The position numbers were made by a program, and so were the translations under genes. The notes beneath the pieces are model-generated. The model was not told the DNA's origin, did not search any database, and saw nothing but the letters and a program-made list of their open reading frames with translations. Of a DNA stretch of 64,000 nucleotides, positions 44,588 to 53,795 are shown in pieces; position 1 is the stretch's first letter, and each line of letters starts with the position of its first letter. Source of the stretch: an uncultured archaeon (lineage in GTDB: Archaea > Asgardarchaeota > Lokiarchaeia > Sigyniarchaeales > SOKP01); the NCBI GenBank assembly GCA_964493715.1, contig CAZBPC010000004.1, forward strand, positions 40,563 to 104,562, written 5' to 3'.

Positions 44588-44872
44588 CTATGCGGGAAGA
44601 ATTTCGATTTCAATCGAGGAAACATTAGTGATTGTTCCATCCGTATTTTTCAACGTTTCAGTTCCTACCTTGATTTCCCCATAACTGCTTCCTTTTACAA
44701 ACTTATTTATGGTAATTTCAGCTACGTCAACTGCTCTTGAAATTGATCTTCCACGTGCGAGTAATCTTACTGGTTTTTCATTGAGCACGACCATGGCAGC
44801 CATTACATAAGCCATTGATTTTTTATTACCAATAAATACTTTTGAATCATCTTTATCTCTCATATTTTTCAC
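44588..44872 (-). CDS. albA: Alba DNA/RNA-binding protein
   Basis: VFIGNKKSMAYV, ARGRSISRAVDVAE, VSSIEI. Confidence 0.93.
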   Translation of the reverse strand: MKNMRDKDDSKVFIGNKKSMAYVMAAMVVLNEKPVRLLARGRSISRAVDVAEITINKFVKGSSYGEIKVGTETLKNTDGTITNVSSIEIEILPA

Positions 44873-46878: not shown

Positions 46879-48981
46879 TTGAATAACAGAAATATAAATC
46901 TGGTTTTAAGGCCTCAAGTGATAATTTTGATTAGAAAAAAAGATCTTGTCATTAGTCCAAACTTAAAAAGTACTTTTGAAAGGATTAATCAACATCTTTA
47001 TGCAAAATTAAAGCACATGGATACCGATACAAGAACCAGATCGAAAGAAATAATAAATTTGTTGTTATGCAAGCTTGTTGATGAAATTTCTAAAGGTTCA
47101 GAAGATCTTTTGGACTTTTCAATTAGAGATGAAGAAAATCAAGATCACTTATTTGAAAGAATTTATAACTTCTTCGAGAATAACGTAAAATCAAGGTACA
47201 AAGATATCATTAATGAAAATGAGCATATTAACTTAAGTTCAGACTTACTTTTCATTGTAGTTCAAGAATTACAGAATTTTTCTCTGATACACTCATCAAA
47301 AGATATTTTAAGTGATGCATTCGAAATTTTTGTAAGTAAAGTGCTAAAGGAGGAGGGAGGTCAATTTTTTACTCCCCCAAACATTATAAAATTCATGGTA
47401 AACTACTTAGATCCAGATATAGACTCAAAAATATTAGATCCTGCTTGTGGTCACGGTGGTTTCCTATTAGAAGTTAAAGATTATTTGTTATCAAAATTCA
47501 AAAATGAGGATCTTGATAATATTATCCCCATGATCCTTTCTAATCTCTATGGAATTGACAAGGATTCATTTCTTGTAAAAATATGCCGCCTCTATTTAGA
47601 GATTTTAAGTGGAGAACACTCTAATATTTTTTGCGAAGATTCATTAGATTTTGAAAATTACAGAGACTCAACAAAAGCCAAGATCCAAGAAGGTAAGTTT
47701 GATTACATTTTTACAAATCCTCCTTTTGGAGCACGAATCCCTATTAACAGTAAAGAAATTCTAAAAAATTATGCTTTAGGTCACGTTTGGAAAAATACTA
47801 CTGATAATGATTGGGTTATGCAAGATAAAATCATTAAGAATCAACCACCTCAAATATTGTTTATAGAAAGATGTATTCAATTATTACGTGTAGGTGGAAA
47901 ATTAGGCATAGTCCTCCCCGAAGGAATATTTGGAAATCCAACAAATAGATATATTTGGGAATATATACATAAAAATGGCATTATTTTAGGCGTGGTCTCA
48001 TTAGATCAAAATACATTTCAACCCTTCACTTGTAACAAAACAAGTATTCTCTTTTTTCAAAAATTAGATGTCATCCCCACTGAATATTCGATTAACTTTG
48101 CTATTGTAGAAAACATTGGACATGATAAAGATGGAAAAGATTTATTTAAATTGAATAAGGATGGGTCTTATAAATATGATGATGAAGGAAATCCAATCAT
48201 AAATGATGATCTAATTGATTTGCACATCCATCTAAAAAAAGTGGAGGATTTTGATTATCTTAAAGAACAAAAAGTTTTTAAATTAGAGAACTACCAGATT
48301 AAAAACAAAATTTATATTCCATATTATTATACGGGAGTAGAAAAAACGCTAAAATTGTTAGAAAAGGATAAGAACTTCGAATTAGTGTCAATTAAACACC
48401 TAACTGATGAAAAAATCATATATACTAATCATAATGGGTTCATTCCTAGAGGAGATGAAATAGGATCTCTACTTTATGGTTTAGGGGATATTCCTTTCAT
48501 TAGAACTAGCGATTTAAATAATTGGGAAATCAATTTGAATTCCAATAAGCGTACATCAAAGGAAGTTTATGATAAATATAAAAAAAAACAAAATATTGAA
48601 ATTGGGGATATCCTTCTCGTTAAGGATGGTGGATCGAACTTAATTGGTAAAACAGGATACGTGAGTGAATTAGATACTAATATCATCATACAAAGTCACA
48701 TTTTTCAATTTAAAATATTAAAAAACAATGAAGCAATCGATCCTTATCTATTATTGTATCTTCTTAATCTCGAGATTGTACAAAAACAAATTGAATCAAT
48801 CACCTTTATACAAGGAACAATAGCTAGTATAGGAAATCGAATAATAGAGGTAATTTTACCTCTGCCTTCAAATCATAAAAGAAGAATACAAATTTCAACT
48901 TATATTAAAGATATAATAGATTCTAAAACAAAAAATCGCAAAAAGATACAAAACTTATCGATTGAATCTTTTAATGAGTAA
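46879..48981 (+). CDS. N6-adenine DNA methyltransferase (HsdM-like) fused to a single TRD (HsdS half)
   Basis: GQFFTP, DPACGHGGFL, NPPF, VLPEG; C-terminal IPFIRTSD, GDILLVKDG..IG, IDPYLL..L. Start uncertain. Confidence 0.85.
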   Translation: MNNRNINLVLRPQVIILIRKKDLVISPNLKSTFERINQHLYAKLKHMDTDTRTRSKEIINLLLCKLVDEISKGSEDLLDFSIRDEENQDHLFERIYNFFENNVKSRYKDIINENEHINLSSDLLFIVVQELQNFSLIHSSKDILSDAFEIFVSKVLKEEGGQFFTPPNIIKFMVNYLDPDIDSKILDPACGHGGFLLEVKDYLLSKFKNEDLDNIIPMILSNLYGIDKDSFLVKICRLYLEILSGEHSNIFCEDSLDFENYRDSTKAKIQEGKFDYIFTNPPFGARIPINSKEILKNYALGHVWKNTTDNDWVMQDKIIKNQPPQILFIERCIQLLRVGGKLGIVLPEGIFGNPTNRYIWEYIHKNGIILGVVSLDQNTFQPFTCNKTSILFFQKLDVIPTEYSINFAIVENIGHDKDGKDLFKLNKDGSYKYDDEGNPIINDDLIDLHIHLKKVEDFDYLKEQKVFKLENYQIKNKIYIPYYYTGVEKTLKLLEKDKNFELVSIKHLTDEKIIYTNHNGFIPRGDEIGSLLYGLGDIPFIRTSDLNNWEINLNSNKRTSKEVYDKYKKKQNIEIGDILLVKDGGSNLIGKTGYVSELDTNIIIQSHIFQFKILKNNEAIDPYLLLYLLNLEIVQKQIESITFIQGTIASIGNRIIEVILPLPSNHKRRIQISTYIKDIIDSKTKNRKKIQNLSIESFNE

Positions 48982-49066
48982 TCTAATACGTATTTTATTA
49001 TCCTTTCTTTAAGAACAAAAAGCAGGAAAAAATGGAAAATTTTAACACCCTAGCTTAATAAAATAA

Positions 49067-50743
49067 TTACTGATTTTCAAGTTTTGTTAATCTTTCTCCT
49101 AAGGAGTCGAGTTTTCTATTGATATCACTAATGACCTCATCTATCATCAAGCGAAATCGTTCATAGATATCAATGATACCTTGTTTCCGTTCTTTTATAT
49201 CCATTAAATTGATTTCACGCTTGAAATTCTCAATATATTTGTATAAATCCTCACAAAATACTTCAAAGTTATCCTTATCAAATTCTAAGCCTAATTCACG
49301 AGAAAGGTTTTTTTCTGCTAAATCCGACCAATCTACATCGAAACCTTTTATTGGAATAATTGGGATTGAGAATTTGTCTGCAAGTTGTAACTCATTGGCA
49401 CAATCCACGGAATCGAACACAGATTTTTTGGTCGCAATAAATAATATTAACTGACATTTTTGCACTGCATCTAACATCCACTTGTCAATATTGCCCGCAA
49501 GATCTGCTTCACAAAAGTAAACTTCAGATATTTCCTTTTGTTTTTCTAAATAATTGACAAGATCACCAATTCGATAAGACTCAAAATCTACAACTGCATG
49601 AGAGATAAAAACCCTTATCGTAGCTTTTTTTCTCAAATAATCTCTGATTAAATCGGGAACTTTTTGGATAATGGTATTTTCCTCACTACTAAAAGGATTT
49701 CCACTTAAATTTAGTTCTACTAATTTCGTAAGGGCCCATAATTGGGTTGGAATCTCATCAAATTTATTATTACTTAGATTTAAACTTTGAAGTGTAGTTA
49801 AATTCACAAACGACTCAGGTAGAGATGTTAAATGGTTATCTGATAACATAAGTTGCTTAAGGTTTCTTATCTTCCCAATCGATTCTGGTAAAGAACTAAA
49901 TTTATTACCCGCTAAAGATATAGTTGTCAGATCGGTGAGATTTCCAAAATCCTCAGGAAGTGCATTTAATGCCGTCTCATTATGTCCCAATTGTTGATTA
50001 ATACTCAAATGTAAAATTTTTCCATCAAAAATTCGAAGATTAACTCCATAAACTCCAGGATTCCTCCAAGGTGCATTAATTGAGTCAAGTTTTTCAGAAA
50101 AAACGCGATTTAAACCATCATTTTTCCAACTTATCTTTTTGATTATTTCAATTTGTTCAATTGGAACACCTAAATTAATATGCAAATTATAAGTAGGGTC
50201 AAATATTTTGACTTTTTTTTCACGTAAGACTCTTAGTATATCCATATTCGATGAAGTTAACTCAAGCGTTTGTATCTTTTGATTTAAAGTGAACTCTCTT
50301 AACTGATCTAATTTGGTTAACCAATTCGGTAGATTAATTATTCTATTACCCATTAGATTTAAACTATTTAGATTTTTGAACTCCTGTATATAATCAGGAA
50401 TCGCGATTAAATCGCTATTTGTTATGATCAAATCCTTGATGTAGTGTAACTCTTTTAACCATTTGGGTATTCCTTTACCCTTGGGGCAATTAATAAGAAA
50501 TCTTTCAATATTTTTTAGCTTCTTTATAGATTCTCCTAAAAGATTTGATTTATTATCATCCAATTCTAATTTCTGTAAATTGAAGCCAAGCATTATTATG
50601 GAGCCCTCATCATTAAAGTTAAAAAGGTTTTCTACTGTTGTAAAATCTTTCATATTAACTCTCCTTAAAGGTACTCCGCAAATTTTTTCAATTTCTTTAA
50701 ATGCTTCCCTTTCATCCTTATTTATCCGTTTATCATCACTCAT
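49067..50743 (-). CDS. Leucine-rich repeat protein with C-terminal TIR domain and coiled coil
   Basis: LxxLxLxxNxLxxLP repeats; RVFISHA...CQLILFIATKKS...DCANELQLA...IPIIPI; C-terminal heptads. Confidence 0.88.
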   Translation of the reverse strand: MSDDKRINKDEREAFKEIEKICGVPLRRVNMKDFTTVENLFNFNDEGSIIMLGFNLQKLELDDNKSNLLGESIKKLKNIERFLINCPKGKGIPKWLKELHYIKDLIITNSDLIAIPDYIQEFKNLNSLNLMGNRIINLPNWLTKLDQLREFTLNQKIQTLELTSSNMDILRVLREKKVKIFDPTYNLHINLGVPIEQIEIIKKISWKNDGLNRVFSEKLDSINAPWRNPGVYGVNLRIFDGKILHLSINQQLGHNETALNALPEDFGNLTDLTTISLAGNKFSSLPESIGKIRNLKQLMLSDNHLTSLPESFVNLTTLQSLNLSNNKFDEIPTQLWALTKLVELNLSGNPFSSEENTIIQKVPDLIRDYLRKKATIRVFISHAVVDFESYRIGDLVNYLEKQKEISEVYFCEADLAGNIDKWMLDAVQKCQLILFIATKKSVFDSVDCANELQLADKFSIPIIPIKGFDVDWSDLAEKNLSRELGLEFDKDNFEVFCEDLYKYIENFKREINLMDIKERKQGIIDIYERFRLMIDEVISDINRKLDSLGERLTKLENQ

Positions 50744-53234: not shown

Positions 53235-53795
53235 TTAAGAATTTTTCTTAATTTCAGCTAGTCTATTAAATATATCTTTAAAATGACCCCCTATCCAATA
53301 AATTTTATTGCAATCCTTATTAGTACACACCCAAAATTCGTCAATATTTAGATAAACTGAATCAGGAATATTATTTCTAAATTTCGTCTTATCTCCAACG
53401 ATTTTAATTTTAGAATTGCATTTGGAACATCTAGCGATGGTGGAGTCATATTTTAAACGAATCTTGAATTTATTAAAGATTTCATACATGTTTTCAGCAA
53501 ATTTAGTGGAATTTAATAAAATGTAAGGTGTTATAGAATGATCAATATCGAATTTTAAATATAGATCTGGATTCTCATTAATTTTTTTTTCATACCTTTT
53601 TTTGAATTTTCTAATCATCTCTCTATCACGGCTGATTAAAATCCGATGTTCTAAAAAGCATTGCTCAATTAGATCATCATCAGCAACGGGAGATCCATAA
53701 GAAGGTTCGTAATCCTTAGCATAACGTGTATCATATCCCAGGAATCTCAACCATCGCGTCAAATTTCCTTCCATCTCATCAGTAAGAAAATTCAT
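53235..53795 (-). CDS. Mut7-C RNase domain (PIN-like) protein
   Basis: FLTDEM.GNLTRWLRFLGYDT, RILISRD, RCSKCN...C...C.KIYW.G.H. Confidence 0.88.
   Translation of the reverse strand: MNFLTDEMEGNLTRWLRFLGYDTRYAKDYEPSYGSPVADDDLIEQCFLEHRILISRDREMIRKFKKRYEKKINENPDLYLKFDIDHSITPYILLNSTKFAENMYEIFNKFKIRLKYDSTIARCSKCNSKIKIVGDKTKFRNNIPDSVYLNIDEFWVCTNKDCNKIYWIGGHFKDIFNRLAEIKKNS

Follow-up and report, generated by a model that had tools for sequence, protein, structure and literature searches.

A soluble LRR-TIR protein of a Loki-type Asgard archaeon, a candidate cytosolic sensor-effector encoded by a single accessory gene

Innate immunity in animals, plants and bacteria alike relies on TIR domains, whose role in archaea has, to our knowledge, hardly been studied. 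A 64,000-nt stretch of contig CAZBPC010000004.1 (hereafter the window), from an uncultured archaeon of the Asgard order Sigyniarchaeales (class Lokiarchaeia; assembly GCA_964493715.1), carries a gene for a protein in which two blocks of leucine-rich repeats (LRR) precede a TIR domain (Table 1), and the locus raises the question of whether such a protein could act as an immune receptor in an archaeon, and of what kind. It is read here, at about even odds (roughly 0.5), as a self-contained cytosolic sensor-effector that would cleave NAD+, on the strength of its sequence, its predicted structure and its likeness to characterised TIR systems.

The gene and its start codon are sound, because more than 100 homologues (45–89% identity) span the protein from residue 1 to the end. 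In the full-length AlphaFold model, built from a 67-sequence alignment (predicted local distance difference test score, pLDDT, 84.2; predicted template modelling score, pTM, 0.69), the LRR solenoid is confident, with pLDDT mostly above 90 across residues 10–350, block A included. A helical and hairpin insert lies between the LRR blocks at about residues 164–250, an alternating beta/alpha domain occupies residues 376–510, and the tail is one predicted helix (residues 516–557); the least confident part is the BB loop (residues 414–418, pLDDT below 50). Pfam models match block B well (LRR_14, E 1.4e-18, 67.3 bits vs a cut-off of 40; LRR_8, E 2.6e-15), and block A (about residues 56–178) scores 28.9 bits with LRR_14, under the same cut-off. 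The two blocks also align with each other (residues 46–154 vs 240–347; 26% identity, E 6e-9), beginning at the hairpin that precedes each, which suggests that a unit of one hairpin and four repeats was duplicated within the protein. No transmembrane helix or hydrophobic segment was found in the protein (maximum 19-residue Kyte-Doolittle mean, 0.91), so it is taken to be soluble. An earlier note on this DNA, made from the sequence alone, had proposed a soluble protein with the order LRR-LRR-cap-TIR-helix; the lack of a membrane segment bears out the first point and the Pfam matches, the model and the block alignment bear out the second, and we regard the architecture, with its TIR domain, as very probably correct.

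The assignment of the C-terminal domain as a TIR is secure, because the fold, the Pfam matches across the family and the motif positions agree. A model of residues 360–558 (pLDDT 81.7, pTM 0.74) was compared by VIA with about 48,000 representative solved chains, with no prefilter. The best match was the TIR domain of RPS4 (Z 13.3, root-mean-square deviation (rmsd) 2.7 Å, 132 residues aligned), further top matches being RPP1 (Z 12.6), Caenorhabditis elegans TIR-1 (12.3), Hydra TRR-2 (11.9), SARM1 (11.8) and ThsB (11.6), and nine of the ten top matches were TIR domains, in keeping with the TIR read in the earlier note. A Foldseek search of the whole PDB returned 41 matches at E<=0.001, with the TIRs of Roq1, SARM1 and RPS4 at the head. 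When its top 1000 were compared again, 49 of the 50 best were TIRs, led by those with NAD+ hydrolase (NADase) activity (RPS4, RUN1, RPV1, SPARTA, SARM1 and AbTir); over both comparisons the RPS4 TIR gave Z 13.3–13.6. By Pfam, TIR_2 (PF13676) matches 14 of 15 copies of the module from the window and its relatives at E<=0.01 (best 1.7e-9) and 36 of 67 wider relatives at E<=1e-5. The whole-protein Pfam scan gave no TIR match at E<=0.01, and a six-frame TIR_2 search of the window's own genome returned nothing at that threshold, the window gene itself included. DUF4062, a family of TIR-like NADases, was considered as another label for the domain and set aside, being weaker than TIR_2 (E 0.047 here, and found in one of the 15 module copies).

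Two motifs bear on the activity of the domain, FISHA at residues 379–383 and DCANEL at residues 447–452. F379, S381, H382, A383, E412, D447, C448, N450, E451 and L452 are invariant in all 67 sequences of the full-length alignment, and the equivalents of the Ser, Cys and Glu are kept at 90% or more across a broader collection of 67 proteins whose architectures differ. Helix alpha-C opens with S-x-x-C-x-x-E-L, which is similar to the motif bearing the catalytic Glu in plant TIRs. The alignment with the SARM1 TIR starts at model residue 16 against SARM1 residue 561, and places SARM1 Ser567 at model residue 22, which is Ser381; in SARM1 this serine is reported to lie 2.6 Å from the catalytic Glu and to be required for NADase activity (10.1101/2025.04.09.647920). 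The SPARTA TIR-APAZ protein aligns near-gaplessly (model residues 16–150 with chain residues 2–140), and its catalytic mutant is given as E77A (PMC10474274). Position 77 falls at about model residue 91, within one residue of Glu451 (model residue 92), which is the sole Glu within 10 residues on either side. The earlier proposal, which placed the Glu of DCANEL where NADase TIRs have their catalytic residue, is thus borne out through the alignment ranges. Judged by sequence and model, the domain has both the beta-A serine and the alpha-C glutamate of NADase-type TIRs, and NADase activity seems somewhat more likely than not.

These residues also bear on two other accounts of the TIR. It might be a non-enzymatic scaffold or adaptor, as in animal Toll-like receptors (TLRs) and MyD88, that recruits proteins by TIR-TIR or tail contacts; TIR adaptors do occur among the structural matches (TIRAP, Z 11.6; MyD88, Z 10.9) and the whole TIR surface is conserved. 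Such a role is nonetheless improbable, given the invariance of the Ser and Glu of the NADase pocket, the enzymatic TIRs at the head of the structural matches, and the lack of a second intact TIR protein detectable in the window's genome. Still less probable is an enzyme whose substrate is other than free NAD+, removing nicotinamide from NAD-capped RNA or making 2',3'-cNMP in a nucleic-acid-dependent reaction. Bacterial and one archaeal TIR protein are reported to decap NAD-RNA (PMC10937652), synthesis of 2',3'-cNMP has been reported for plant TIRs (10.1101/2021.11.09.467869), and both activities use the same pocket, but they have been described alongside NADase activity and not in its place, and the protein bears no sequence sign of RNA or DNA binding.

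Table 1. Parts of the LRR-TIR gene, in window coordinates; identity is the mean to the window protein across 67 homologues.
Feature	Residues	Position	Strand	Remarks
Whole gene	558 aa + stop	49067..50743	(-)	ATG start; soluble LRR-LRR-TIR-helix protein
N-terminal helix, beta-hairpin cap and LRR block A	1-178	50210..50743	(-)	Variable; identity 42-43%
Helical linker and beta-hairpin capping block B	179-250	49994..50209	(-)	Most variable part; identity 33%
LRR block B, four canonical repeats	251-352	49688..49993	(-)	Identity 53%; conservation rises towards the TIR
C-terminal LRR cap helices / linker to TIR	353-375	49619..49687	(-)	Helices 353-358 and 363-373; identity 79%
TIR domain	376-510	49214..49618	(-)	TIR_2 and structure comparison; identity 81%
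Long amphipathic C-terminal helix, coiled-coil-like tail	511-558	49070..49213	(-)	Identity 57%
Ser381 codon (S of FISHA, strand beta-A)	381	49601..49603	(-)	Invariant 67/67; maps to SARM1 Ser567
Glu451 codon (E of DCANEL, start of helix alpha-C)	451	49391..49393	(-)	Putative catalytic Glu; invariant 67/67

Conservation is distributed very unevenly along the protein, the TIR (81%) and the cap (79%) standing against 33–53% for the LRR and linker parts, with the tail at 57%. A search with the TIR alone found at least 120 proteins, all those listed being 74–95% identical over the domain. To judge from these sequences, the sensor-like part is evolving fast while the output part is strongly constrained. 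Over the N-terminal LRR half (49733–50617), metagenome contigs from related strains depart from the window at 39 of 527 and 53 of 620 letters; those that cover the TIR and tail (48775–49793) do so at 0 of 505 and 2 of 544. The counts hint that strain differences are concentrated in the N-terminal LRR half, the contigs being possibly of different strains.

In the tail, Y527, E528, R531 and L532 are invariant in the 67-sequence alignment. A coiled coil, as the earlier note had it, is plausible in this predicted helix because the heptad a/d positions are strongly hydrophobic (75% of them in the best register, vs 23% of other positions). A complex prediction with two copies of the TIR-tail fragment scored 0.02 against a mark of 0.42, and is uninformative on self-association either way.

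The window's genome (3.68 Mb in 160 contigs) holds one full-length copy of the gene and one degenerate partial copy on contig C57, 31% identical over residues 274–514. This paralogue (L019:1580-2446 (+), on G000:C57; 289 aa, 24–31% identity) has lost the Cys of D-C-x-x-E-L. About 14 kb from it on the same contig lies a gene with a SIR2_2 domain (G000:C57:16925-17302; 827-aa frame), and three more SIR2_2 genes are found on C20, C61 and C75; none of the four adjoins the LRR-TIR gene. Full-length orthologues occur in four of 24 other genomes of the same genus (designated G006, 77% identity; G023, 64%; G011 and G005, 52%), and several near-complete genomes of the genus gave no match at E<=1e-30. 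The phylum was surveyed with the TIR-tail part as query (E<=1e-15) in a sample of 299 genomes, a negative meaning that nothing was found with that query. The TIR module was detected in 30 of 66 genomes of the window's family, in 3 of 7 of the sister family and in 0 of 225 from 28 other families, with up to seven copies per genome, some in tandem. Tandem or clustered paralogues (G228:C7:722601-725500, G239:C77:6842-9738, G104:C4:19627-23567 and G035:C20:3910-10060) are reminiscent of immune-receptor gene clusters. All homologues that carry an organism name are Asgard (Lokiarchaeota, Lokiarchaeia, Lokiarchaeum, Hermodarchaeota, Odinarchaeota or Promethearchaeota), and two more carry the label 'marine sediment metagenome'; the names Hermod and Odin sit poorly with the narrow distribution found under the GTDB taxonomy. 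On these sequence searches, the LRR-TIR gene appears as an accessory element made of one gene, patchily distributed within a single Asgard order among the genomes sampled.

The same TIR is found on other sensors. A profile of the module, searched against 1.84 billion representatives, matched 1042 representative clusters at E<=1e-3, 561 at E<=1e-10 and 167 at E<=1e-30, and the module is almost always C-terminal. Among 67 members scanned, 49 carry LRR, eight LVIVD, five bacterial TSP3, two WD40 and two TPR domains, and no STAND NTPase was present among the 25 commonest families. In 12 of 26 longer members checked, a single transmembrane helix precedes the TIR by 0–18 residues, and most of these members also have a hydrophobic segment at the N-terminus. 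These proteins (P0263, P0234, P0245, P0256, P0259, P0242, P0189, P0210, P0212, P0201, P0196 and P0240) have a large LVIVD, SBBP or TSP3 ectodomain, a transmembrane helix and a TIR, a topology like that of Toll and IL-1 receptors. Frames of 1074 aa that match one of them through the transmembrane helix and TIR are present in two same-genus genomes (L020 = G254:C114; L021 = G104:C4), and no such frame was found in the window's own genome. Two further proteins, P0205 (604 aa) and P0122 (482 aa), consist of tandem TIR modules with no sensor domain (four copies and three profile stretches; TIR_2 finds two in P0122).

Next to the LRR-TIR gene, and convergent with it across a gap of 85 nt, is a gene for a 700-aa N6-adenine methyltransferase (46879–48981 (+)) with a fused target-recognition part like that of type I S subunits (residues ~495–694); the gap on the other side is 219 nt. 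The earlier note had suggested that the two genes form a defence islet, the LRR-TIR protein working with the methyltransferase. The convergent arrangement, its retention in the closest relative (G006) and the resemblance of the methyltransferase to those of restriction-modification and MADS systems are in its favour, but the comparison of genomes refutes the islet as a conserved pair. The locus belongs to a syntenic block (GNAT287, Alba, enoyl-CoA hydratase, TM240, methyltransferase, LRR-TIR, GNAT145 and acyl-CoA synthetase) that G006 keeps with the LRR-TIR gene included, whereas in G022 and G023 only 76 and 42 nt separate the methyltransferase (86% and 67% identity) from GNAT145, and the LRR-TIR gene is missing between them. 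The orthologues of four genomes lack the methyltransferase as a neighbour: that of G023 is on a different contig, flanked by zinc-ribbon genes, unknowns and a gene of the creatininase family; those of G011 and G005 adjoin genes for cysteine desulfurase, a flavoprotein, ferredoxin and an ABC transporter; and that of G026 adjoins genes for a ZIP transporter and Fe-S proteins. The methyltransferase also scores 293 bits with the MAD2 model, where the cut-off is 720. A functional pair is thus very improbable indeed, and the LRR-TIR gene is, from the sequence comparison, best described as a single-gene indel between the methyltransferase and GNAT genes, with no conserved partner gene. Four syntenic genomes in the genus keep the methyltransferase itself at this place (67–86% identity), and no restriction gene is near it, which suggests that it is solitary.

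PADLOC, run on 39 neighbours at seven related loci, matched only the methyltransferase, cysteine desulfurases (by generic DndA/SspA similarity) and one ABC ATPase. The DndA/SspA matches beside the orthologues of G011 and G005 were rejected as a defence context, since these genes encode class-V aminotransferases / cysteine desulfurases and have neither dnd nor ssp partners close by. The G005 orthologue has, about 2.6 kb downstream, a gene for a 634-aa protein of reversed order (L016:12192-14093 (+), on G005:C134), in which an N-terminal TIR_2 domain (48.4 bits, exceeding the cut-off) precedes a long LRR region. The window's neighbourhood is otherwise ordinary, with genes for a Mut7-C RNase-domain protein, Alba, enoyl-CoA hydratase, two GNATs and acyl-CoA synthetase (e.g. 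53235–53795 (-) and 44588–44872 (-)), mostly syntenic across the genus. The more distant orthologues have unrelated metabolic genes around them. No direct repeats or mobile-element signature were seen at the insertion junctions when the window, G006, G022 and G023 were aligned. In four metagenome runs no contig joins the methyltransferase directly to the GNAT gene, and the LRR-TIR gene showed no polymorphism for presence or absence; the one joint close to it was a replaced 108-nt intergenic stretch (48959 to 49068) in X4 and X7.

An immune role for this cytoplasmic sensor is plausible, on sequence grounds, because of its patchy distribution, its behaviour as a single-gene indel, and its combination of a variable sensor with a conserved effector. 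Specifically antiviral action we would put somewhat below evens. The same observations can be set against a non-immune signalling role, in which the LRR would sense an endogenous, environmental or partner-organism cue and the TIR would make an NAD-derived messenger or nucleate an assembly, as one part of a lineage-specific repertoire that includes membrane receptors. That account would suit the extreme conservation of the TIR and tail, the transmembrane receptor forms within the family and the genus, the absence of defence genes nearby and of a PADLOC match, and the abundance in Asgard genomes of LRR proteins whose function is unknown (10.64898/2026.10.28.762692). Against it, patchiness within a genus and a single-gene indel fit accessory or conflict genes better than core signalling, and the window's genome has no membrane TIR receptor to serve as partner; we consider it unlikely, though far from negligible.

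For the sensor-effector reading, the following course of events is proposed. At rest the TIR would be inactive, with a BB loop that is probably flexible, to judge from its low confidence in the model. Binding of a ligand by the variable LRR surface would bring several chains together, the leading guess for the ligand being a viral or other foreign protein, and the C-terminal helix would probably aid their association. In SARM1, plant TNLs, SPARTA and AbTir, the NADase sites form only upon TIR assembly; here too the TIRs would assemble head-to-tail to create composite active sites, in which Glu451 would cleave NAD+, leading either to NAD+ depletion, with growth arrest or abortive infection, or to a signal derived from ADP-ribose.

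Several observations weigh against this reading. When the C-terminal part is scanned alone, TIR_2 gives 27.5–27.6 bits (E 4.6e-6), 0.4 bits short of its cut-off of 28. No TIR was reached when solved structures were searched by sequence, whether with the single sequence (best E 0.1) or with a 15-sequence profile (best E 0.57), the top matches being unrelated proteins. Flavodoxin-like domains that are not TIRs (MilB, the G domains of LepA and IF2, and nucleoside 2-deoxyribosyltransferases) reach Z 11.2–11.4 in the structure comparison, a margin of only about 2 Z units. The equivalences of the Ser and Glu derive from alignment ranges, not from residue-level superposition. PADLOC gave no match for the LRR-TIR protein, and no recognisable defence system is present among the 39 neighbours at the seven related loci. 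Lastly, a fast-evolving defence gene would not usually keep its whole TIR surface so highly conserved, and the constraint could instead reflect a conserved cellular partner.

No paper on an Asgard LRR-TIR or TIR receptor family was found among the CC-licensed PMC full texts and bioRxiv. In the available portions of a survey of Asgard defence systems (PMC11291487), TIR is mentioned only within the system names 'Rst 2TM TIR-NLR' and '2TM 1TM TIR', and the corresponding portions of an October 2026 preprint on Asgard solenoid proteins describe the LRR proteins as functionally unknown, consider a receptor role unlikely and never mention TIR (10.64898/2026.10.28.762692). The family had earlier been put forward as undescribed, which holds as far as these papers go, but NCBI annotation already names some of its members 'TIR domain-containing protein'. 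Fused to an upstream LRR and lacking an NTPase, this archaeal TIR sensor-effector would be a new arrangement of known TIR sensors. Its size as a family argues that at least part of the Asgard LRR expansion is receptor-like, with variable LRRs or membrane-anchored ectodomains feeding one conserved, enzyme-type TIR, and as a simple single-chain sensor-effector lacking an NTPase it is directly testable. Another question that it touches is whether Toll-like architectures are of ancient date or were repeatedly reinvented, and reinvention is favoured because the distribution is narrow. A broader and rather doubtful extension is that Loki-type Asgards have a lineage-specific TIR receptor repertoire, in which one conserved, enzyme-competent TIR is placed on interchangeable sensors (soluble LRR arms or ectodomain-transmembrane-TIR forms) under a TLR-like logic without a STAND NTPase, the window gene being the cytosolic, mobile, single-gene form. 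If true, a TLR-like pattern-recognition system would have been assembled in the closest prokaryotic relatives of eukaryotes.

Among known systems, the nearest are the enzymatic TIRs (RPS4/RUN1/RPP1, SARM1/TIR-1, SPARTA TIR-APAZ, AbTir and ThsB). They share the fold (Z 11.8–13.6, rmsd 2.5–3.0, 118–135 residues) and have the beta-A serine and alpha-C glutamate at matching positions, and in them, as here, the TIR is the conserved output of a variable sensor; sequence identity to the window TIR is just 14–24%. Unlike these systems, the window protein has no STAND NTPase, ARM/SAM, APAZ/Argonaute or ThsA partner, and its LRR is fused directly upstream of a TIR that is followed by an amphipathic helix. 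With regard to Thoeris (ThsB and ThsA), no ThsA-type gene adjoins, the neighbours being the methyltransferase and GNAT genes, and there is no PADLOC match. Compared with STAND/NLR proteins, there is no NB-ARC or NACHT NTPase by Pfam, and the region between the LRR blocks consists of 72 residues of helices and hairpin. Membership of a restriction-modification or MADS-type pair is not supported by conserved co-occurrence with the methyltransferase.

Likeness to Roco proteins lies in a cytosolic LRR followed by an alpha/beta domain of nucleotide-binding type. The best full-length Foldseek match is the LRR-Roc-COR of Chlorobium tepidum Roco (6hlu, E 2.4e-11, TMq 0.25), and LRRK2 and SHOC2 also match; the TM-scores are low (0.17–0.27) and the similarity is in the LRR part. 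For the Roco-like cap suggested earlier, support comes at the level of the fold only; the cap is helical and 79% conserved. Pfam finds neither a Roc GTPase nor COR, a TIR following the LRR instead. The ectodomain-transmembrane-TIR receptors of the family (P0256, P0263, P0234 and others), which occur in the window's genus, have the same TIR subtype (profile E 1e-34 to 1e-65), but their signal or anchor, their LVIVD, SBBP or TSP3 ectodomain and their transmembrane helix are all missing from the window protein. With TLRs the protein shares the order of LRR then TIR, and the Hydra TRR-2 TIR is a good structural match (Z 11.9–12.4, 22–23% identity). The description 'Toll-like' applies to that order and not to the rest, since the signal peptide, LRR ectodomain and transmembrane helix of TLRs are absent, the TIR keeps the enzyme-type residues, and the LRR is of the cytosolic Roco/SHOC2-like type. 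In the sample searched the family did not extend beyond a single Asgard order, so independent assembly of LRR and TIR is more likely than shared ancestry with the Toll-like receptors.

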